A stretch of 64,000 nucleotides of DNA from NCBI GenBank assembly GCA_965279515.1, contig CBDIID010000003.1:2240001-2304000 (forward strand). Reading direction: 5' to 3'. Within the stretch, counting starts at the first letter, position 1. Every line of letters begins with the position of its first letter. Source of the stretch: Turneriella sp. (lineage in GTDB: Bacteria > Spirochaetota > Leptospiria > Turneriellales > Turneriellaceae). The notes below the pieces were generated by a model. That model made no database searches, was not told the DNA's origin, and worked only from the letters and a program-made list of their open reading frames with translations. This document shows positions 12,538 to 26,084 of the stretch, in pieces. Both the position numbers and the translations under genes were made by a program.

Positions 12538-12801
12538 ATGGAAGCACACATTGCCGCGAAACAACCGATCGAAGCCGAACTCGAAGCAGGCAAAACCTAT
12601 TTCTGGTGCGCTTGCGGGCATTCGAAAACGCAGCCCTACTGCGACGGCACTCATAAAGAAGTAAATTCAGGCATTGCCGATGCAGCCGCGCGCTTCAAAC
12701 CGGTACGCGTTTCATCAGAACAGGCGCAAAAGGTGTGGCTTTGCATGTGTAAGCATACGAAAAATGCGCCCTATTGTGACGGAACCCATAAAACTCTCTA
12801 A
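12538..12801 (+). CDS. CDGSH iron-sulfur domain protein (two CDGSH motifs)
   Basis: WCACGHSKTQPYCDGTH and LCMCKHTKNAPYCDGTH. Confidence 0.95.
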   Translation: MEAHIAAKQPIEAELEAGKTYFWCACGHSKTQPYCDGTHKEVNSGIADAAARFKPVRVSSEQAQKVWLCMCKHTKNAPYCDGTHKTL

Positions 12802-14520: not shown

Positions 14521-14539
14521 GGAAACTGTATCGAATCTC

Positions 14540-14569
14540 AAAAAGGCGGCCGCTGGCCGCCTTTTTTTT
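14540..14569. terminator. Bidirectional intrinsic terminator
   Basis: AAAAAGGCGGCC-GCT-GGCCGCCTTTTTTTT between convergent genes. Confidence 0.9.
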
Positions 14570-14571
14570 GC

Positions 14572-17500
14572 CTAGCGCTTTCGCTTTTTTTTCTTCCACT
14601 TCGACTTACCTTCGTTGGCGCCTTCATAGACCAGGCGCGGCGCAGTCTCGGCTGTCGCCTCGTGATCCCTGATATCGAAGTAATCCGTTTTGCCGGCATG
14701 CGAGCCCGCAGTGGGCGCCGTGGGATTCTCGTCTTTTACGATCAAAAGGTAGAGGCATGGTAAGACAGTCAGAATCAGCACCAATGCCGCAAACAGACCG
14801 CCGACGACGACCGTGGCAAGCGGTCGCTGCACGTCTGAACCCACCCCCGTTGCCAGCGTCGCGGGGATTAATCCCAGAAGCGCCAGCGTCATCGTCATGA
14901 GGCGGGGCCTCAGCTGCACAATCGCCGCGTGTTCGACGGCTTCCATGACGCTCATGTTCAGGTTTGACCTCAGGATCAGGTTTGTTCGCGAAACGAAGAG
15001 GACTCCCCCCATCGTCGCAATACCGAACAACGAGATAAATCCCACCCCGGCCGAGATGTTGAAGTAATAATCGCGGACGACGAGCGCCATGAGGCCGCCG
15101 ACCAGCGACAGCGGAATGCAGGCCAGCGCCACCATCACGTAACGCAGGCGTTTGTAGAGGCCATACAGCAGCGCAAAGATGATAAAGATCGTCACCGGAA
15201 TCGCTACCGCCAACTGCTTACCGACGCGCGCGAGGTTCTCATAGTTGCCGCCGTATTCGAGGCTGTAGTCCTCGGGCAATTTTACCTGCGCGGCAACCTT
15301 GTCCTGTAACTCTTTCACGAAACCACCCTGGTCGCGGCCGCGGATATTCGTGCGCACTGTGATGGCGCGCTTACCTTCTTGCCTGAAAATCATCGTTGGC
15401 CCATCGATGATGGAAATATCGGCAAGCTGCGCCAGCGGCACGCGTTCTCCGGTGGGAGCGAAAACCGGCAGGGCCTGCAGCGCCTTGACGCTCTTGCGGT
15501 ATTCATAGGGATACCGCACAACGATGCCGAAGCGCCATGGCCCTTCATACAGCGTCGATATCCGCTGGGCACCGATACCCCGCTCTATGACGCTCTGGAT
15601 CGTGCTGATATTGATGCCGTAGCGTCCGGCAACTTCGCGCTTGATCTTGATCGTCAGTTGCGGCGAGTCGGCTTCCTGTTCGAGACCATATTCCGAAGCC
15701 CCCGGAATCTGACTGAGGATATCGAGGATTTCATTGGCTTTTTGCCGGGCGATCTTGAGATCGGGCCCATAGACAAACACCGCCAATTCAGCAATGGTAC
15801 CGTTAATCGCCTCCTGCATGTTATCCATAATCGGCTGCGAAAAGCTCCAGCGCACCGAGGGAAACTCGTGTTCCATATCCTTGATAATGCGGATGAGCAG
15901 ATCCTGTTTTGTTATTTTCTCTTCCCACTTCGCGTAATCGTGCAGCGACATCGTGATTTCGAGGCGATTGGGCGGCAGCGGGTCGGTACCCGAATCGTTG
16001 CGTCCGAGCTGCGCCACGGAGTTGGCGATCATGGTATTCTTCGCCAGGACTTCCTGAATCTTCGGCAACTGCTTGTTTGCGGACTGCAAAGAAACACCTA
16101 CCGGGAAATATCCCCTAAGTGTCAGGTTGCCTTCGTCGAGCTCGGGCAAAAATTCAGACCCGATCTTCAGCGTACCGAATATCGTCAGGGCGAGAACGGC
16201 GCCGAATGCGATGGCGACGACCTTTTTGTAGCGGGCCAGCAAATAACGTACCACACGATCGTACTGTTTTTCTATCCAGCCGTATACCGGGTTGTGCCAT
16301 TCGATTTTCTCCTTGCTGTCGGATTCCCAGTATTTCCGGTAAATCATCGCCATTAACACGGGCACTACTGTCATGGCAAAAACGAGCGATCCGAGAATCG
16401 CGTAAGAAATCGTAAACGCCATCGGTTTAAAGAGCCGTCCCTCGATACGCTCAAACGAGAAGATGGGAATATAGGCGAGGATAATAATGAGCATCGAAAA
16501 GACGATCTCCATCCCCACTTCCTTGGTGCCGTTCAGCGTATACTGGCCGATATTCTGCGTGCGGTTGTCTTTTCGGTCACGGTAAAGCCGCGTGATGTTC
16601 TCGGCCATAACGACGACGCCGTCGACGATGATACCGAAGTCAATCGCGCCCAGCGATAAGAGGTTCGCCGAAAGCCCCGTCATCCGCATGAGAATAAAAG
16701 CGCAACAGAGCGAGAACGGTATCGTCAACACCACCACCATCGCGGTGCGCACCGAACCGATGAAGAACACCAGAATCAAGGTCACAATCGTCACACCCTC
16801 TATCAGGGTTTTGCTGATCGTATTCAAGGTATACTTGACGAGATCGCCCCGGTCGACCATGACCTTGACCTGCATGCCATCCGGCATGTATTTCTCATTG
16901 ATTTCTTTGGTCTTCGCGCGCAGTTTTTCTCCGGTAGTATTGGGGTCACACCAGCGCCGCATGGCCGTGTTCCCCTGGACTCCCGAGGGGACGCTGAACA
17001 GCGCTTCGCCGGCGGATTTATCCTGCGTGAAATAGTTCACAACCCCTTGCGGTATCAGCGGCGAAACTTCGACCGAGGCCAGGTCTTTAACGAAGACCGG
17101 TACGCCGCGTTCGGTTTTCACAAAAATATTTTCGATATCCTTGAGATTGCGGATAGCGCCCAGCGAACGGATCGCAAACCCCTGGTCGCCCTGGCGCAGA
17201 ATATTGCCGCCGCTGTTGAGATTATTATTCTGAATGGCGTTGACGACTTCTTCGAGATTGGTATTGTATTGAACCATCCGCTCCGGGGTCGTGATTACGT
17301 GGTACTGTTTTTCCAGGCCGCCGAATGTCACAACATCGGCAACGCAAGGCACCGATAGAAGTTTCGGCATGACTACCCAGTCCTGCACCGTGCGCACTTC
17401 CATCGGCGTATGGTTTTTTCTGCTCTCGACGATGTAACGGAAAATCTCGCCCGAAGGTGAACTCATCGGCGCAAGTTCCGGTTCCACTTCGGGGGGAATC

Positions 17501-17862
17501 TGCGCTTCCTTGACTTTTTCCATCAGACGTATGCGCGCGAAATAGTCGTCGGTACCTTCTTCGAAGACGAATTGGAATGTCACAAGGCCATTGATCGTCC
17601 GCGAACGCCTGACGCGCACATTGGGCGTATTATTTGTGACGCGCTCAATGGGCAGTGTCACACGCTCTTCAACCTCGACGGCGGCGCGCCCCGGAAACGC
17701 CGCAACCATACGTACCTGCGTATCGGCAATATCCGAATACGCCTCTTTCTGGATGCCGACCCACGACCAGATTCCCAGCGCTACGATGAGACCGGCGAGA
17801 CCGAGGGTCGGGAGTTTGTTCTTGAGGGCGAACTCCACCGCCCGAAAAATAATCTTATCCAT
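14572..17862 (-). CDS. CzcA/CusA-family heavy-metal efflux RND permease (copy 2)
   Basis: About 1096 aa; [46 protein letters not shown] at 17862 preceded by AAGGAG. Confidence 0.95.
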
Positions 17863-18005
17863 GATTGCTCCTTGCAACAAAGACATCTTTGTTTTATCCC
17901 TGCCTGGAGTCGGCGCGCAATGGCAGCCCGCGCAGAGCGGAGCTCAACACTCAAGACGCACCTCTCCATACCCGCGGGTTTTCCGCGGCATTAAAAATTT
18001 TTTGC

Positions 18006-18446
18006 TTAGATGGATCTTACCGGAGGAGGAATCGGATACCGGCTTGGGATATCAGATTGGGCAAAATAATGAAAATCATCGTCGGGATGGATGACACTCA
18101 GGAAAAAACCGGAAGGTTTCAGGACCGCAGAGGTGACCGTCTGCAGAAAAAAATCGCGAAAATGTTCCTGAAAACCGAATCGCAGAAGGCTGCCACGCTT
18201 ATTCGGATGCGCGAGTTTTTGGGCGACTTCACCCGCAGTTTCCCGCACGCCGTGCTCCGATGCCAGCCCTCCGCCTGCAGCATGCAGTTCGGGTGCCTTC
18301 TGGATATGACCGTAGCCGAAAGTTCCCGGCGGCTGCACGCCTCCGGCGACGGCAAATCCGGAGACGGCATAGAATAAAAGGAAGAGCACCGCGGGGATTT
18401 TTCTCCGCGGGGAAAATTCAGAAACTGCTTTCGAATCGGATAACAA
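18006..18446 (-). CDS. Putative leader/arrest peptide ORF 2 (146 aa; signal peptide; C-terminal SRYPIPPP)
   Basis: In-frame TTG 1 nt after the czcA copy 1 stop; aligns with 24800-25246 (DS..VS..PR, ELHAA, G[VI]RE, SRYPIPPP). Confidence 0.75.
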   Translation of the reverse strand: MLSDSKAVSEFSPRRKIPAVLFLLFYAVSGFAVAGGVQPPGTFGYGHIQKAPELHAAGGGLASEHGVRETAGEVAQKLAHPNKRGSLLRFGFQEHFRDFFLQTVTSAVLKPSGFFLSVIHPDDDFHYFAQSDIPSRYPIPPPVRSI

Positions 18447-18447
18447 G

Positions 18448-21400
18448 CTACCTCTTCTTCTTACGTTTCTTCCACTTCGACTTACCTTCGTTGGCGCCCT
18501 CGTAGACCAGCCGCGGCGGTGCCGCCGATTCCGCTGCATCTTTCGCCGCAAAATAGTCGATCGGCGATCCACCACCCGAAGACCCGGTCGATGGCGTCTT
18601 CTTTTCATCTCTGACGACGAGCAGGTAGAGGCAGGGCAGCACGGTAAGCACCAAGAGCATTGCCGAAGCGAGACCACCGACGATGACCGTTGCCAGCGGG
18701 CGCTGCACGTCTGAACCCACACCGTGGGCCAGCGTCGCGGGGATTAACCCCAGAAGCGCCAGGAGAATCGTCATCAGCATCGGCCGCAGCTGCACCTGCG
18801 CGGCTTTTTCGACCGCTTCAAACGTGCTCATGGTCAGGTTATTCGCGAGAATATGGTTCGTGCGCGAGACGAAGAGAACCCCCGACATCGTCGCAATACC
18901 GAACAGCGAGATAAACCCCACACCCGATGACACATTGAAATAATAATCGCGCATCACGAGGGCCATCATACCACCCACAAGCGAGAGAGGTATACAGGCC
19001 AAAGCAACCAGGACGAAACGGATATTTTTGAACAGCCCATAGAGCAGGCCGAAAATGATGAGGATCGTCGCCGGTATCGCAATCGCCAGCTGCTTACCCA
19101 CACGCGCAAGGTTTTCATAGTTACCACCATACTGCAGCGTATAGCCCTCGGGCATTTTTATCTGCGCATCGACCTTTTTTTGCAGCTCGGCGACAAAGGA
19201 GCCCTGGTCACGGCCGCGAATATTCGCACGTACTGTAATAGCGCGCTTGCCCTCTTGCCTGAAGATCATCGTCGGTCCATCGACAATGTCAATGTCGGCC
19301 AGCTGCGCCAGCGGAATACGTTCGCCAAGCGGTGAGAAAACCGGCAATGACTTCAACGCTTTGATGCTTTTTCTGTATTCATATGGAAAACGCACCACGA
19401 TACCGAAACGCCACGGGCCTTCGTACAGGGTGGATATCCTCTGCGCACCAATACCTTTCTCGATGAGGCTTTGAATGGTACTGACGTTGATGGCATAACG
19501 CGCGGCGACCTCGCGCTTGATCTTAATCGTCAGCTGCGGCGAATCGGCTTCCTGCTCGAGGCCGAATTCCGAGGCACCCTGGATCTTACGCATGATTTCC
19601 AGAATCTCGCTCGCTTTTTGCCGCGCGATCTTCAGGTCGGGACCGTAGACGAATACGGCCATATCGGCAATCGTACCCATGATCGCTTCGGACATGTTGT
19701 CCATAATCGGCTGCGAGAAACTCCAGCGGATCGACGGGAACTCGTGTTCGACATCTTTGATGATGCGGATCAACAAATCGTCCTTAGTAATTTTTTCATC
19801 CCATTTGCTATAGTCATGGAGTGCCATCGTGATTTCGAGACGGTTGGGCGGCAGCGGGTCAGTGCCCGAATCGTTGCGGCCGAGCTGCGCCACGGCATTC
19901 GCAATCATGGTGTTCTTTGCCAGTACCTCCTGGATTTTCGGCAACATCTTATTTGCAGACTGCAACGAAACACCAACCGGGAAATATCCCCTGAGCGTCA
20001 GGTTGCCCTCGTCGAGTTCGGGTAAAAATTCAGAACCGATGCGCATCCCGCCGAAAGTAATTAAGGCCAGCACGACACCAAAGGAAATATAGACGACCTT
20101 TTTATAACGTGCGAGCAAAAAACGCATGAGCTTGTCATAACGTACTTCGACCCAGGCATAGACCGGGTTATGCCATTCGATTTTTTCGTTCGAATCGGAT
20201 TCCCAGTATTTTTTGTAGATCATCGACATGAGGACAGGCATGATCGTCATCGCAAAGAGCAGAGACCCCAGAATGGCGTATGAAATCGTGAACGCCATCG
20301 GCTTGAACAGTCGGCCCTCGACGCGTTGGAATGAAAAGATCGGGATATAGGCCAGAATGATGATGAGAATCGAGAACACAATCTCCATCCCCACTTCTTT
20401 ACTGCTATTGAGCGTGTACTGGTTGATGTTCTGGCTGCGGCTAGCGCTTTTATCGCGGTAGCTGCGCATGATGTTCTCGGCCATGATCACGACACCATCG
20501 ACAATGATACCGAAATCGATAGCCCCCAGCGACAACAGGTTCGCCGACAAGCCGGTCATGCGCATGAGAATAAAGGCAAAGAGCAGCGAAAACGGAATCG
20601 TCAATACCACGACCATCGCCGTGCGCACTGAGCCGATAAAAAAGATCAGAATCAGGGTTACGACCGTCACGCCTTCGATCAACGTTGTACCGATCGTGCG
20701 CAGTGTATAGTTGACGAGGTCGGCCCTGTCGATCATGGGCTTCACCTGCATGCCGTCGGGCATATACTGTTCGTTAATTTCTTTCGTTTTAGCGCGCAGG
20801 TTGTCCCCGGTCGTATTGGGGTCGCACCAGCGCCGCATCGCGGTGTTTCCCTGGACGCCCGATGGAACCTTAAAGAGCGCCTCGCCCGCTGATTTATCCT
20901 GCGTAAAATAATTGATGATACCCTGTGGAATCAGCGGCGAAACTTCGACCGAGGCGAGATCCTTAACGAAAACCGGCACGCCCTTATCGACCTTGACGAC
21001 AATATTCTCAATATCTTTGATCGTGCGGATAGCCCCCAGTGAGCGAATAGCAAACCCCTGGTCCCCCTGGCGCAGAATGTTACCGCCGGTGTTCAGGTTA
21101 TTTTTCTGGATGGCTTCGACAACTTCATCGAGATTCGTGTTATACTGAACGAGCTTTTCCGGCGTCGTGATCGCATGGTACTGTTTCGCAACGCCGCCAA
21201 AGGTTACGACGTCGGCAACGCAGGGAACGCTGAGCAGTTTCGGCATCACAATCCAGTCCTGCACGGTACGCACTTCCATCGGCGTGTGATTTTTTTTCGA
21301 TTCGACTATATAGCGGAAAATTTCGCCTGAAGGTGAACTCATGGGCGCAAGTTCGGGCACGACCTCTGGCGGAATCTCCGCCTCTTTCACCTTTTCCATC

Positions 21401-21738
21401 AGCCTGATGCGGGCAAAATAGTCGTCTGTACCTTCCTCAAAGACAAACTGAAAAGTGACGAGGCCGTTGATCGTGCGCGAACGGCGTACGCGCACCTGTG
21501 GTGTATTGTTCGTCACGCGCTCGATGGGCAATGTGACGCGCTCTTCGACTTCAACGGCGGCCCGCCCGGGAAAAGCGGCAACGAGACGCACCTGCGTATC
21601 GGCGATGTCCGAGTAGGCTTCTTTCTGAATGCCGACCCACGACCAGATACCGAGCGCGATAATGAGACCAGCCAGTCCCAGGGTCGGCAGTTTGTTTTTT
21701 AGGGCGAACTCGACCGCCCGGAAAATTATTTTATCCAT
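18448..21738 (-). CDS. CzcA/CusA-family heavy-metal efflux RND permease (copy 1)
   Basis: 1096 aa; same RND-HME motifs; highly similar to copy 2. Confidence 0.95.
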
Positions 21739-21741
21739 AGT

Positions 21742-22701
21742 TTAGAAACCGACGGATAAGCCCTTGAGCAGCATGACGCCTTCCGTCACGACCGTATCGC
21801 CCTTCTTCAGCCCTTGCAGAATCTCGACGTATTCGTCGTTGGAGTTTCCAATCACGACGGTTTTTTTCCGGAACGTATCTTTCGCTTCTTCGACAAAAAC
21901 ATAGTTTTGACTTTCGACGGTAAAAATCGAAGTGAAGGGTAGCACCATAGGTGCTTTTTGGTCGTCGATGAATTCGACCTTGGCGAACATGCCGGGTTTG
22001 AACTTGCCATTTTCATTCGGGAAAATCACACGCACTTTTACAGTCCGCGTCGCCGGGTCGACGTTGTCACCCACGGCCTGCACCTTTCCTTTCATTTTCT
22101 TATCGGGGAAAGAATTGAAAATAATGTTCACGGCTTTACCGGCGCGGCAGGTGTCTAACCTGCTTTCGCTGATGTCAGCAATCATCCAGACGATGTTCGA
22201 GCCATAGTTGTTGAGGTCAGAGGGATTCACCCCTGCGGCGCGCAGCTTACCTTCCGATTCGGCGACCTGGGCCCCCGAGTTGCCGGCTTCGGTCTCGGCC
22301 TCGATGATGTCACGCTCGGTGGCAACCTGCATCGAGTACATGTCTTTCACGCGTTTGAGATTTTTCGAAGCACGCGAAGAGGCGTTGCGCGCCTGGCGGT
22401 ACGTGGCATACGCCGTGTTGAGATCGGCAGATTCGAAGAGCACGATTTTGCCCCCACTCGAAACCGAACGGCCGACGGTTGCAACCACGCGCGCCGGCGC
22501 CTGAATCTGTATGAATTCCTTGCCGCTGCCGAAGGGCCGCGTTTCAATGCGGGCACGCCCTTGGGCGCCTTCCGGGAAAAAGATCACTTCTCCCTTCTCG
22601 CGGATTTCAGGCGCCACATAGACCGTCGGCGGCTTTGCTTTCGGCCCGCAGGCAACAAGAACCAGACTCAAAAATACAGAATAAGACAGTATCGTCTTCA
22701 T
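21742..22701 (-). CDS. RND membrane-fusion protein (CzcB-like), lipoprotein
   Basis: Lipobox LVAC; VDPATRTVKVR and KPGMFA motifs; AAGGAG RBS (alternative in-frame start at 22734). Confidence 0.92.
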   Translation of the reverse strand: MKTILSYSVFLSLVLVACGPKAKPPTVYVAPEIREKGEVIFFPEGAQGRARIETRPFGSGKEFIQIQAPARVVATVGRSVSSGGKIVLFESADLNTAYATYRQARNASSRASKNLKRVKDMYSMQVATERDIIEAETEAGNSGAQVAESEGKLRAAGVNPSDLNNYGSNIVWMIADISESRLDTCRAGKAVNIIFNSFPDKKMKGKVQAVGDNVDPATRTVKVRVIFPNENGKFKPGMFAKVEFIDDQKAPMVLPFTSIFTVESQNYVFVEEAKDTFRKKTVVIGNSNDEYVEILQGLKKGDTVVTEGVMLLKGLSVGF

Positions 22702-22748
22702 TTTATTCTCCTTAATAGAAGTATGTTTTTTCATGATTATTCCTTTGT

Positions 22749-23312
22749 TTAACGTGGAAAAGTGAACAGGTAGCCGGCCTGAAAAATCAAGACCGGGTTC
22801 TTCATTTCATCCGACATGGCACGCCCCACCCCGCCCTGGAAGAAAAATCCGTCCATGAACAGTTCATAGGCGCCACCGATGTAACCGCTGGCCTGCGAGA
22901 CGCCGGTCTTGTCGTCAGGCAATGCCGGATCGAGCGCAAACAGCGGGTTGCGCTTCATATAGCCCCCGACAAAAGACAGGCTGTGGCGGATGCGATCGCC
23001 GTTAAACAGCGAGAAACCGACATCACCCTGAAAGCCCATAAAATTGCTGCCGTAAAACATGCCCGATCCCCTGAGGATAAAGCGCCACAGATGAAGCTGC
23101 GCATGCACATTGAGCCCCGAAGGCAAGCCAACGGTCGGCCCGATGGCAAAAAACGAATTTGTCAGCAGGTTACGGTCGATGGCCTCGTCGGCGTCTTTAT
23201 ACGCTTGGGCGAATTTATCCGTCTTCGCTTCGCTGTCCTTTGCCTGGGCAAACAGCACTCCGCCTGACAAAAATGCGCAAACCAACAATATACCAGGTTT
23301 GAAAGTTCTCAT
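22749..23312 (-). CDS. Small exported protein, probable beta-barrel OMP
   Basis: Signal peptide; Gly/aromatic alternating strands; C-terminal AGYLFTF. Confidence 0.6.
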   Translation of the reverse strand: MRTFKPGILLVCAFLSGGVLFAQAKDSEAKTDKFAQAYKDADEAIDRNLLTNSFFAIGPTVGLPSGLNVHAQLHLWRFILRGSGMFYGSNFMGFQGDVGFSLFNGDRIRHSLSFVGGYMKRNPLFALDPALPDDKTGVSQASGYIGGAYELFMDGFFFQGGVGRAMSDEMKNPVLIFQAGYLFTFPR

Positions 23313-23313
23313 A

Positions 23314-24759
23314 TTATTTCACCTCCGCGGCATTGTTGTTCGCCGGTACGGTTTGCAGGAAGATGATGTCTTTCCCGATCGAGTAGTTGATGTTCTCGAG
23401 GGCTTCGGTGCGCTGCGTTTTAAGGTCGATCAGCTGCACGATGCTGTTGCGGTAAGTCTCAAAGAAGTCTGCAAGTTCGATGACGGAGATATAACGTTTC
23501 TGGTAACTCGCCACCATCACCTGGATCAACTCGCGGAAATCCTGGACATGGCCGCCCTTGAATTCCTGGTAAATCTTGTCTTTTTCTTTCGCCTTAATCA
23601 GCGAAGCCGCGAGCTCACCTTCGAGCCTCATACGTTCGTTCATGAGCTCGCGTTTTTTTGCTGCGATCGCCTTCTTGGCCGATTCGATATTCCCCTGGTT
23701 GCGGTCGAAGAGCGGCACATTCACCTGCGCAGTGAGACCGAAGTAGTTGGGCTGATACGTGTTTGCGCGGTTAAAAACCGGCCCAAATGCCAGGTCGGGA
23801 ATCGCATTCGCCTCTTGCAGTTCGAGGTTCGCTGTCTCGTACTTGAGGTTCAGCATCGCGGTTTTGAGATCGGGCCTATGCGTCTCCGCATACTCAACGA
23901 GTTGCTTTATCTCGAGGCTGTTTGCAGCCGCATTCTCGAGCAATTTTTCGTCGACGAGCGGCACCAGTTGGTGCTCGGCAAGTTCAGGCCGGTTCATCAG
24001 CACGCGTAAATTCACTTCTTTCAGGCGCACATTCATCATGATGTTCGCGCGCTCATTGCGCAGAAAATAACTTAGCGCCTTGAGACGCAGGTACTCCGCT
24101 TTAGTGATCGCGCGGCGAGACAATGCCACTTCGGCGCCCTTCACAGTTCTGCCGAGAGCTTCGATCGTCTGGTCATAATACATGACGCTCTCGCGCATAT
24201 AATGGAGGGCGAAAAAAGTATTGCGCAGTTCAAACTTCAGCGCGCGTAAAACATTAAAGAACTCATTTTCCGTCAGCGCCTTGTTGATTTCCGCAACCTT
24301 GATCCGCTTATCGATCTTGCCGCCCATGAGAAAGAGCTGCTGTATCTGGATTACCTGGCTGCCGTTTTCGGTAGCATCGAGAAATTGCGCCGTCTTATGG
24401 CTGTAAATGCTGGTTTCGAGAAACACGCTGGGGTTTGCATAAAGCCCCGCCTGCATGACAAGCGCGCGTTTCGCCTCGATCTGAAATTTTGCCGCAAGGA
24501 GCAGCAGGTTTCTTTCGACGAATGATCGTTCGGCTTCTTCCAGCGAAAGTCTATAGACTTTCAGATCACTCGCCGCGAGCGTCGGCGAAGTGATTGGGTT
24601 CGCAACGATAGGCTCCGGTGTCTGCGACGCCGGTTTGGTCGCGGACACAGGCTCGGCGGACTTAATGAGCTCCGCCTCTTGTTTTTCCGGAATATCGCCA
24701 GCCTGCGCATACAGCGATGCAACCAAAACAAGAAAAAAAGATATAGATACTTTAAACAC
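23314..24759 (-). CDS. TolC/CzcC-family outer-membrane efflux protein
   Basis: RPDLK and VPLFDRNQGNI motifs; signal peptide; GTG start with GGAGG. Confidence 0.93.
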   Translation of the reverse strand: MFKVSISFFLVLVASLYAQAGDIPEKQEAELIKSAEPVSATKPASQTPEPIVANPITSPTLAASDLKVYRLSLEEAERSFVERNLLLLAAKFQIEAKRALVMQAGLYANPSVFLETSIYSHKTAQFLDATENGSQVIQIQQLFLMGGKIDKRIKVAEINKALTENEFFNVLRALKFELRNTFFALHYMRESVMYYDQTIEALGRTVKGAEVALSRRAITKAEYLRLKALSYFLRNERANIMMNVRLKEVNLRVLMNRPELAEHQLVPLVDEKLLENAAANSLEIKQLVEYAETHRPDLKTAMLNLKYETANLELQEANAIPDLAFGPVFNRANTYQPNYFGLTAQVNVPLFDRNQGNIESAKKAIAAKKRELMNERMRLEGELAASLIKAKEKDKIYQEFKGGHVQDFRELIQVMVASYQKRYISVIELADFFETYRNSIVQLIDLKTQRTEALENINYSIGKDIIFLQTVPANNNAAEVK

Positions 24760-24799
24760 ATTCCCTCCACGCCTGCCTGAGCCGGCGAATCTTTATCGT

Positions 24800-25246
24800 T
24801 TATGCGAGAGAGAGGGCAGGTGGAGGTATTGGGTAGCGGGAATTAAGGTGCGTATGCGCAAGTGAAATAAGATTAGCGTTCAGGCAGGCATCACCCAGAA
24901 GCAGCAGCGGTTTGTTGAGTTTCTGGGCTGCGAAGGCCATGGGAAAGAGTTCCCACAGGGAAGATCCGGATGTATTGTGACGAGGCGGAGTGAAGCGGTT
25001 GTTACCCTGTTCGATCCGTTGGATTTCTTCGGGTGAAGATTCACGGATACCCTGCGCCGGTGACGTAAAGTCACGCGCAGCATGCAACTCAAGCGTACTG
25101 ATGTGCAGCGCTGAGCTTTTCACAACTTTGGGTGACAGGTCTTGCGTTGCAATGCTGAAGCTGCAAAGCACCAGAACTGATGCGATCAGTACAGAGAAAA
25201 CGCTTCTTGGTGCCGAGACAGATACGTTCATAATGCTATCAACCAA
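24800..25246 (-). CDS. Putative leader/arrest peptide ORF 1 (148 aa; signal peptide; C-terminal SRYPIPPP)
   Basis: Hydrophobic N-terminus; directly upstream of tolC; paralogue at 18006-18446. Confidence 0.78.
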   Translation of the reverse strand: MVDSIMNVSVSAPRSVFSVLIASVLVLCSFSIATQDLSPKVVKSSALHISTLELHAARDFTSPAQGIRESSPEEIQRIEQGNNRFTPPRHNTSGSSLWELFPMAFAAQKLNKPLLLLGDACLNANLISLAHTHLNSRYPIPPPALSLA

Positions 25247-25295: not shown

Positions 25296-26084
25296 CTATG
25301 CCTGTCGCCAGGATGGCGTCTTTTTATACAAGAAAGCGCCGACGCCTTCACGGCCTTCATCGCTCATGCGCCGCCGGGCGGCCAGATCGATCAGATGCGC
25401 CGGCAGGTCAGCAGGCCATTTGCCACGGCCAGAATAAATATCCAGCAGGTTTTTGATCTCGGCCTGGGCCCCAGGCGCCCCTCTTTTCAGGTCGGTAATC
25501 ATTGCATTGAGAAACTCAAAACATGCCATCTTTGTACCGACATAATTCACGAGCCCCATTTCCTTGGCATCCCAGAACTGGAAAATCTCACCGGATAGGA
25601 AGAACCTCCTAGCGTTCGTCAGGCCGATGCGCGATACGACATAAGGCGTAATCACGCTGGGGATGAGCCCTAAGGTTACTTCAGCAAAGGCGAAGGTGGA
25701 AGATTCGAATGCGACAGCGATATCGGCGGCGGCCAACAGGCCAATGCCGGCCCCCGAAATATGCCCTTGCGCAATGGCAATGACGGGTATGCCGCAGGTG
25801 GCAATCGAAGTAAGCAGCTCTGAGAGGGGCTTAATGTCTTTTATCTGCTGCTGTTTCGTGAGCCCCGCAGTCTCTTCGATATGTTTCATATCGGCGCCGC
25901 CGCAGAACGATTTGCCTTCGCCGCGCAGCACGATCACCCGGGTCTCGGGGGATTTTGCCGCCCCCTTAAATATGCCTGTCAACTCAGCGATCATCTCTTC
26001 TGTCAAAGAGTTGGCTTTTTCGGGATGATTCAGGCTGACATGCAGAACACCGGCATCAAACTTGGTCAGAATAAATGAGCTCAT
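25296..26084 (-). CDS. Enoyl-CoA hydratase/isomerase (methylglutaconyl-CoA hydratase-like)
   Basis: SFCGGAD, GAGIGL, EVTLGLIP, EGREGVGAF. Confidence 0.9.
   Translation of the reverse strand: MSSFILTKFDAGVLHVSLNHPEKANSLTEEMIAELTGIFKGAAKSPETRVIVLRGEGKSFCGGADMKHIEETAGLTKQQQIKDIKPLSELLTSIATCGIPVIAIAQGHISGAGIGLLAAADIAVAFESSTFAFAEVTLGLIPSVITPYVVSRIGLTNARRFFLSGEIFQFWDAKEMGLVNYVGTKMACFEFLNAMITDLKRGAPGAQAEIKNLLDIYSGRGKWPADLPAHLIDLAARRRMSDEGREGVGAFLYKKTPSWRQA

Follow-up and report, generated by a model that had tools for sequence, protein, structure and literature searches.

Paralogous proline-tailed small ORFs as candidate exported pausing leaders of a CusA/CzcA-type efflux operon in Turneriella

The minus strand of a Turneriella sp. 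contig (CBDIID010000003.1, assembly GCA_965279515.1) carries two small open reading frames (ORFs), here called ORF A and ORF B, within an operon for a heavy-metal efflux pump of the CusA/CzcA type. Both lie in the 64,000-nucleotide stretch that we analysed (contig positions 2,240,001 to 2,304,000; hereafter the window), and all coordinates below refer to this stretch. We propose, with a probability of roughly 0.6, that ORF A and ORF B encode cis-acting exported pausing leaders of the CutF/uA_LPPP type, which would gate the gene for a TolC/CzcC-like outer-membrane factor (OMF) and, via ORF B, a second permease gene, czcA-2. Judged by their sequences, the two ORFs resemble CutF and uA_LPPP on every anatomical count, yet fall outside DUF2946. 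The leaders appear to form a new sequence family, built on a pausing-leader design that is already known.

Metal sensing by a nascent exported chain, as described for CutF and CruR, is a recent discovery that has so far been tied to the cysteine-based DUF2946 alone. Here, the same design, comprising a signal peptide, a PPP tail close to the stop codon and a masked ribosome-binding site (RBS), seems to occur in a cysteine-free sequence family of spirochaete relatives, where it precedes a CzcA-type pump. The Turneriella branch offers a test case for this design, with an invariant five-residue motif, a peptide spacer of fixed length, a short spacer RNA and a natural duplicate, ORF B, in front of a second pump gene.

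Two homologous small ORFs end in the same proline-rich tail

The first-pass annotation had placed two small homologous ORFs on the minus strand, and both are present: ORF A (24800-25231, 143 aa) in front of the OMF gene, and ORF B (18006-18446, 146 aa), which begins 1 nt past the czcA-1 stop codon. They align over their full length with 26% identity (BLASTP E = 2e-9), confirming that they are divergent homologues, and every feature of the proposed common core (HI-x3/4-ELHAA, G[IV]RE, E..Q and N.R) is found in both. Of the TTG starts suggested for the pair, the one of ORF B is kept, whereas ORF A more likely begins with the ATG at 25231 (MNVSVSAPR), because its four closest relatives start at the equivalent of this internal codon; the alternative TTG at 25246 would give a protein of 148 aa.

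As had been noted, both ORFs carry SRYPIPPP shortly before the stop. The motif codons of ORF A occupy 24818-24841 (PPP at 24818-24826, minus strand) and are followed by five further codons (ALSLA) and a TAA at 24800-24802, while those of ORF B occupy 18021-18044 (PPP at 18021-18029, minus strand), followed by four codons (VRSI) and a TAA at 18006-18008. Among the stop-to-stop frames of at least 50 aa in the 4.9-Mb window genome, PIPPP stands near the C-terminus in just these two; as a base rate, 132 of the 49,659 frames of the six-frame translation contain PPP within their last nine residues.

Towards the N-terminus, ORF A contains a hydrophobic segment that looks, by eye, like a signal sequence (residues 10-29; 25145-25204, minus strand), with an arginine before it and SIA|TQD after it. 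The conserved central block lies further downstream in the ORF (25010-25093, minus strand) and extends from LELH (25082-25093) to GIRESSPEEIQRIE (25010-25051). AlphaFold, run with a 15-row alignment, returned no confident fold for ORF A (mean pLDDT 59.9, pTM 0.23); helix 8-31 was the sole confident part (pLDDT 84-89), and the model was too poor for a fold search. Scanning Pfam with hmmscan (E up to 1) assigned neither ORF to any family, and the NCBIfam scan likewise gave nothing meaningful. That the leader genes fall outside the existing Pfam and NCBIfam families has a bearing on annotation; the one source annotation that we saw for such a gene reads "hypothetical protein".

A fast-evolving family confined to Turneriella

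Four relatives of ORF A (55-79% identity, or 56-81% by BLASTP) came out of a word-indexed search among 5.8 billion protein clusters, which retrieved none of ORF B. Profile searching of 1.84 billion representatives recovered nine real members; a match to a 2816-aa protein (P0015, E = 6e-4) was treated as spurious and disregarded. Searching collections of genome and metagenome contigs with the family alignment found no relative. The family thus delimited has about 15 members, each of 117-167 aa and none fused to other domains. Across 34 genomes of the order, matches are confined to the genus of the window, Turneriella, in which 4 of the 13 other genomes carry them.

The alignment of 15 members places the conserved positions in two regions, a central block and the tail. 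Invariant are L49, Q71 and the P-I-P-P-P motif, and nearly invariant are the initiator methionine, R79, R84 and the arginine two residues before the motif; R63, E64 and E68 are nearly invariant in a 10-member alignment. The tail takes the general form R-[YF]-P-I-P-P-P, and in all 15 members PIPPP is followed by 2-6 residues and the stop codon. Between Q71 and PPP lies a hypervariable, barely alignable sequence whose length is nonetheless kept at 63-65 residues in 14 of the 15 members, with 59 residues in the remaining one. Inspected by eye, the N-termini have a basic n-region, 13-20 consecutive uncharged residues and a site resembling AxA. A lipoprotein reading was rejected, the cysteine of LVLC occurring in the five closest members only. 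ORF B preserves all family-invariant positions at only 15-26% identity to the other members and has no orthologue elsewhere, whether in the protein-cluster search, the genomes of the order or the operons of three relatives.

Between genomes, the leaders are 19-35% identical, compared with 68-86% for czcA and 72-87% for the OMF, which suggests that the leader body is weakly constrained and evolves far faster than the neighbouring genes. The tail behaves differently at the codon level. We compared the PIPPP codons of six DNA loci, namely ORF A (CCA ATA CCT CCA CCT), ORF B (CCG ATT CCT CCT CCG) and the loci L004 (CCC ATT CCT CCG CCC), L005 (CCC ATT CCA CCC CCC), L006 (CCC ATC CCC CCA CCC) and L007 (CCT ATC CCA CCC CCT) of related genomes. 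The first and second positions are constant, and every third position varies. Variation at third codon positions alone is the signature of selection on the peptide rather than on the RNA sequence.

The same data bear on a different explanation, in which the products of the small ORFs function in the periplasm as part of the efflux system, for instance as a metal chaperone or a regulator like CzcI, and PIPPP serves as a docking or stability motif; any pairing of the tail codons with the next Shine-Dalgarno (SD) sequence would then be a by-product of the proline codons and amount, at most, to ordinary translational coupling. A mature size of about 115 aa and the signal-like N-terminus would suit such a protein, and the central block (LxLH, G.RES.PEE[IV]QRIE and R....R) is kept family-wide with fixed spacing. 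CzcI itself, which lies upstream of czcCBA and is described as having no proline tail in PMC9973294, sets a precedent, and the SD pairing does not exceed that of synonymous recodings (see below). On the other hand, the leaders diverge to 19-35% identity when their supposed partners are kept at 68-87%, the predicted structure has no confident fold (pTM 0.23), and the sole invariant stretch is the run of prolines at a constant short interval before the stop. Moreover, this tail is all that the leaders have in common with the ORFs at the equivalent position in Leptospiraceae, which are not homologous to them (hhalign probability 0.74%). We therefore consider an accessory periplasmic protein unlikely.

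Association with the outer-membrane factor gene

The leaders had been predicted to be positionally linked to transporter genes, and this link is borne out: in all five loci for which DNA was available, a leader gene immediately precedes that of the OMF. In the window, the OMF gene (23314-24759, minus strand; GTG start; PF02321, E = 1.2e-27) is separated from ORF A by 40 nt (24760-24799, minus strand), and the spacers in the four related genomes measure 51, 168, 54 and 36 nt. In three relatives, the leader and OMF genes are followed by an ORF of 196-220 aa, the gene for the periplasmic adaptor (MFP) and a single czcA. Within the genus, the leader and the OMF gene are both found in the window genome and four others, and neither is found in the other nine.

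Proline-tailed ORFs at the same place across the class

Searching with the OMF protein identified orthologues in 99 of 151 genomes of the class. We examined the 29 orthologue loci that were returned, one of which (L031) is cut by a contig end, leaving 28 that could be evaluated. A script detected a same-strand upstream ORF with PPP in its last nine residues in 27 of the 29 loci; the upstream ORF of L036, which ends NIPPPSIS, was missed by the script filter and found by eye. An xPPP-tailed ORF therefore stands upstream of the OMF orthologue in every one of these 28 evaluable loci. In the 24 evaluable loci from Leptospiraceae, these ORFs end in LPPP, IPPP or RPPP followed by 1-4 residues.

The first-pass annotation had pointed to Leptospiraceae as a place to look for further upstream ORFs ending in RYPIPPP. 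What occurs there, at all 24 of these loci, are xPPP-tailed ORFs in front of OMF orthologues, but they have no detectable homology to the Turneriella family: aligning the two sets of leaders with hhalign gave a probability of 0.74% over seven aligned columns. The Leptospiraceae ORFs share with the Turneriella leaders the syntenic place before OMF orthologues (45-52% identity), a hydrophobic N-terminal segment and the PPP tail. They differ in being shorter (105-134 aa, counted from the first start codon), in lacking the LxLH and EEIQRIE blocks, and in having mostly longer spacers (24-250 nt, at least 100 nt in 12 of 16, with a heuristic choice of start codon). Since the hydrophobic head and the xPPP tail are the sole features kept across the class, the design appears to be general and repeatedly used rather than the peculiarity of one family.

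The RNA context also differs. At Leptospiraceae loci such as L034, L038, L041 and L047, the usual partner of the PPP codons is a G-rich stretch within the spacer (GGGGGUGG, GGAGGAUU or GGGAGAG) and not the OMF SD, a hint of a switch with several helices, unlike the direct SD masking predicted for Turneriella.

Predicted masking of the Shine-Dalgarno sequence

It had been claimed that the motif codons of both ORFs are complementary to the RBS of the next gene. For ORF A the claim stands in the local minimum free energy (MFE) fold, in which CCUCCAC (proline codons) and AUUCCC.GCUACC (N-S-R-Y-P codons) face GGC-GUGGAGGGAAU; the G-rich arm of the spacer, GGCAGGCGUGGAGGGAA (24761-24777), includes the SD of the OMF gene, GGAGGG (24763-24768). 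For ORF B, UAUCCGAUU-C-CUCCU (Y-P-I-P-P codons) is complementary to AGGAG-C-AAUC-AU-GGAUA, which comprises the SD and start of czcA-2, and when 201 nt are folded, both the MFE and the centroid structure contain this pairing, which depends, however, on context.

The picture is more uniform at the OMF genes. In local folds of all five OMF-linked loci, the OMF SD is paired with codons of the motif or the tail; the SD is of the GGAGG type (GGAGGG or GGAGGA) in four of them and GGGGGG in L004, in each case 4 nt before the start codon. Between a 13-nt SD window and the last 48 nt of the leader, the summed pairing probability in these five loci is 9.6-11.9, placing them in the top 0.25-2.25% of 400 same-strand gene junctions; these junctions were crudely called and come from the window genome only, and the relatives, being kin, are not independent tests. 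Pairing by the motif codons is robust to the amount of context in L004-L007, that is, in four of the five loci. In the window, 6.8-9.8 of the 10 SD-window nucleotides of the OMF gene are predicted to be paired in all contexts tried. We further compared each locus with GGAGG contexts of the genome, 236 in number, and the fractions pairing at least as well were 0.08, 0.03, 0.11, 0.28 and 0.26 for the OMF loci and 0.53 for ORF B. The z-scores for folding of the whole region do not stand out (-0.78 for A and -1.67 for B). These models predict that the OMF SD is hidden and that its natural partner is formed by the proline codons, given their resemblance to the anti-SD CCUCC. As to the 236 places themselves, they are all those in 4.9 Mb where GGAGG is followed, after a gap of 4-9 nt, by ATG or GTG and an open frame of at least 100 codons, and strong SDs thus seem rare, and yet four of the five Turneriella OMF genes have one.

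A simpler device could also account for a hidden SD, namely constitutive coupling, in which translation of the leader opens the masked SD and PPP merely lengthens the dwell time, with nothing being sensed. It would fit the strong predicted sequestration of the SD in all five OMF-linked loci, the tight packing of the genes further down the operon (separated by 1, 14 and 3 nt, with ORF B 1 nt past czcA-1) and the putative status of a ligand-binding motif in the leaders. Such a device would leave unexplained why the signal-like N-terminus, the central motif and the 63-65-residue ruler are kept, and why P-I-P-P-P is invariant as a peptide, beyond a C-rich RNA. We judge it quite improbable.

Comparison with known pausing leaders

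CutF of Rhodobacter capsulatus, encoded in cutFOG, is exported co-translationally and ends in P109EPEGPPPRL118; its PPP, its signal peptide and an SD-shielding stem-loop are all reported to be required for copper-induced synthesis of CutO, and copper-induced stalling overrides elongation factor P (EF-P) in the published model (PMC9973294; bioRxiv 10.1101/2025.02.05.636593). The window ORFs share with CutF a small peptide (exported by Sec in CutF, putatively so in the window), PPP a few residues before the stop, a short spacer with a stem-loop that hides the next SD (predicted in the window) and a place before metal-homeostasis genes. CutF acts in cis, as we propose for ORF A and ORF B. Unlike CutF, the window ORFs have no DUF2946 match and no CxxxC, with a conserved acidic/His block instead; they carry the motif R-[YF]-P-I-P-P-P, occur as two copies in one operon, and precede the OMF of a CusA/CzcA RND pump, whereas the target of CutF is a multicopper oxidase. 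DUF2946 (PF11162) was found in none of 201 sampled genomes of the phylum, including the window genome, the control being positive in 2 of 14 named genomes.

CruR of Bordetella pertussis (BP2923), also a DUF2946 protein, is described in PMC9426467 as having a RAPP motif, a CXXC sensor and a dispensable signal peptide; copper relieves the arrest and leads to Rho-dependent termination, i.e., repression. Like the window ORFs, CruR is an upstream ORF with a link to metals and, at its C-terminus, a proline motif for arrest (putative in the window), and its spacer of 162 nt (PMC9973294) is comparable to the 143 nt of ORF B. The spacer of ORF B, unlike that of CruR, is G-rich and, by eye, not an obvious Rho loading site. 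Of the traits of the CutF-CruR group, the proline motif by the stop is present in 15 of 15 members and an SD-shielding structure is predicted in the five OMF-linked loci.

The planctomycete uA_LPPP leaders have a signal sequence, a body of diverse sequence and an XPPP motif among their last 15 residues; ribosomes stall on them when the third codon of LPPP is in the P-site (Fujiwara et al. 2024, PMC10987492). The Turneriella leaders are similar in their signal-like N-terminus, hypervariable body and an aliphatic residue plus PPP near the C-terminus. The two sets have no sequence relationship, and the aliphatic residue of the window ORFs is an isoleucine that follows an invariant proline; uA_LPPP lies upstream of secA and is read as a secretion monitor, whereas the window target is an efflux operon. 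CzcI of Cupriavidus metallidurans, in PMC9973294, is a small putative metal-sensing regulator upstream of czcCBA that is placed among CutF-like sequence clusters. Compared by description only, it is like the window leaders a small exported protein directly upstream of an efflux operon, czcCBA, and unlike them it lacks the C-terminal proline motif.

The first-pass annotation did not recognise RYPIPPP as a described arrest motif. This holds for the motif itself, which was not found in the literature searched, but not for its type, as XPPP-type arrest or pause tails are published. Among the matches listed, supplements aside, the literature held neither a PIPPP/RYPIPPP tail nor such a leader from Leptospira or Turneriella; lists of CutF-like or XPPP upstream ORFs in those supplements could bear on novelty.

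Another possibility is that the leaders monitor the cell rather than a metal. SecM and VemP are monitors of Sec export capacity or proton-motive force, and the Salmonella mgtP leader reportedly responds to Pro-tRNA or EF-P status. In favour of such a role, an ESM Atlas feature search, which otherwise returned unnamed clusters, listed a SecM cluster at rank 29 (score 0.94; a lead only), and the architecture is the same as that of uA_LPPP (PMC10987492). Deletion of efp by itself is, moreover, reported to induce the gene downstream of CutF (PMC9973294; bioRxiv 10.1101/2025.02.05.636593). Set against this, neither ORF A nor ORF B has a Pfam match to SecM (PF06558), and the putative target genes encode a CusA/CzcA-type pump and not export machinery, so that tying them to secretion load would have no obvious logic. 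Where Sec/YidC monitors precede sec or yidC, the genes downstream here are the OMF (PF02321) and the permease (TIGR00914); by context, the window ORFs do not appear to be Sec/YidC monitors. We regard a cell-monitoring role as very unlikely.

Proposed mechanism and points against it

In the pausing-leader reading that we favour, each leader would be translated and its N-terminal signal would engage the Sec pathway. On reaching P-I-P-P-P, 2-6 codons before the stop, the ribosome would slow in peptide-bond formation, and the paused ribosome would cover the CCN-run codons that are otherwise base-paired with the GGAGG-type SD of the next gene. The pause would give a time window for initiation at the OMF gene and, by tight coupling, also at czcA-1 and the two genes that precede it (the 187-aa ORF and the MFP gene); at czcA-2, the same part would fall to ORF B, which is coupled to the czcA-1 end. 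Pause length would probably be tuned by the fate of the part of the chain that has already been exported: with the ribosome on PPP, the block LxLH...G.RES.PEE[IV]QRIE, at 63-65 residues from PPP, would be outside both ribosome and translocon. The sequences show the anatomy, the pattern of conservation, the linkage and the predicted pairing; pausing, the cis-regulatory effect, export and the signal sensed are what we infer; the earlier reading of the ORFs as nascent-chain leaders is backed comparatively as regards anatomy (an exported leader, a C-terminal proline motif and codons that mask the next RBS).

The fixed 63-65-residue ruler, together with the acidic/His block, suggests a periplasmic ligand. 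That this signal is a divalent metal is possible, although we lean against it. More speculative, and in our view rather doubtful, is a fuller version in which the Leptospira/Turneriella class has lineage-wide, cysteine-free "ruler" leaders, unrelated to DUF2946, that sense across the membrane. With the ribosome on PIPPP, the block LxLH...RES.PEE[IV]QRIE would sit at the periplasmic mouth of the translocon, where binding of Zn, Co or Cd would prolong the pause and turn the pump on, and in the window genome two divergent sensors in one operon would separately gate OMF, MFP and czcA-1 on the one side and czcA-2 on the other.

Several observations weigh against pausing leaders as described here, the first group concerning sensing and stalling. 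The histidine of ELH, which had been put forward as a possible metal ligand, is not invariant: His50 is present in 13 of 15 members and missing in two. The 15-member alignment has no conserved cysteine after the hydrophobic segment and no CxxC or CxxxC. With no conserved cysteine and a histidine that is missing in 2 of 15, the metal site is a conjecture. Conservation of the central block would be just as compatible with a separate function of the mature protein. EF-P, which normally relieves PPP stalls, is encoded in the window genome (TIGR00038, 217 bits). In the published systems, the CutF tail alone is reported not to be a strong staller (PMC9973294), and uA_LPPP, which stalls efficiently in B. 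subtilis, is reported not to do so in E. coli in vivo (PMC10987492).

A second group concerns the RNA. At ORF A, the SD partner moves to CCUUCGC (24930-24936) when at least 90 nt of upstream context are included, and masking a ribosome footprint on PPP in this context changes SD pairing only from 7.59 to 7.47 of 10; in L004-L007, the same masking lowers it by merely 1.5-4.3 of 10 nt. The pairing at ORF B is predicted with up to 39 nt of upstream ORF context only and is gone at 48 nt or more; it is also ordinary, 43.5% of the genome junctions scoring as high. We further recoded the last 16 codons of each leader synonymously 300 times, and the fractions of recodings that paired at least as well as the real sequence were 0.78, 0.52, 0.07, 0.31, 0.03 and 0.65 in the six loci, giving no signal of selection at the RNA level. 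As the pairing is no better than that of recodings, it follows from having proline codons. Cognate duplexes of tail and SD were not clearly better than non-cognate ones, and no clear covariation was seen among them.

Layout of the operon and neighbouring features

Downstream of the OMF gene, the minus strand carries a 187-aa ORF with a signal-like N-terminus (22749-23312), the RND periplasmic adaptor gene (MFP; 21742-22734; PF16576, and TIGR01730 at 117 bits, above the cut-off) and czcA-1 (18448-21738), with intergenic gaps of 1, 14 and 3 nt in a tightly packed string. The 187-aa ORF had zero matches in the Pfam and NCBIfam scans; since the ORF of 196-220 aa occupies the equivalent position in the operons of three relatives, the RND operon seems to include it as a conserved fourth component. 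ORF B follows czcA-1 and is separated by a 143-nt spacer (17863-18005, minus strand), which contains internal GC-rich hairpins and the SD AAGGAG (17868-17873), from czcA-2 (14572-17862, minus strand). The two permease genes, czcA-1 and czcA-2, are 84% identical and score 835.0 and 835.4 bits with TIGR00914, against a curated cut-off of 701.45. These matches place the pump in the heavy-metal efflux RND family (CusA/CzcA), which does not imply a particular metal.

The operons of the three relatives contain a single czcA and no ORF B, which indicates that ORF B and czcA-2 are an addition peculiar to the window genome. Compared with the czcA of relatives, czcA-2 is 68-80% identical, while czcA-1 is 86% identical to the czcA of the relative G024; this pattern suggests that the duplication is not recent or that czcA-2 evolves faster.

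We also considered other control elements around the leaders. An intrinsic terminator was rejected for either spacer, as no terminator-like site was found on the minus strand in them, and no sigma-70-like promoter was found between ORF A and the gene upstream of it. This gene, of the enoyl-CoA hydratase family (25296-26084, minus strand), lies on the same strand and ends 64 nt upstream of ORF A; in L004 and L007, two of the four related loci, an enoyl-CoA hydratase gene likewise precedes the leader.

The frame of ORF B is open for a further 276 nt upstream (18006-18722, minus strand), over the 3' end of czcA-1, and an equivalent alternative frame is open over the 3' end of czcA-2 (14538-14699, minus strand). 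Both open frames probably result from the C-terminal tails of the permeases, which are rich in Lys and Arg; ORF B as a read-through product or extension of czcA-1 was rejected, the two frames being different. Finally, an 87-aa ORF on the plus strand (12538-12801) contains two C-x-C-x-H...C-D-G-[ST]-H repeats and, by eye, resembles a CDGSH-type iron-sulfur domain protein.

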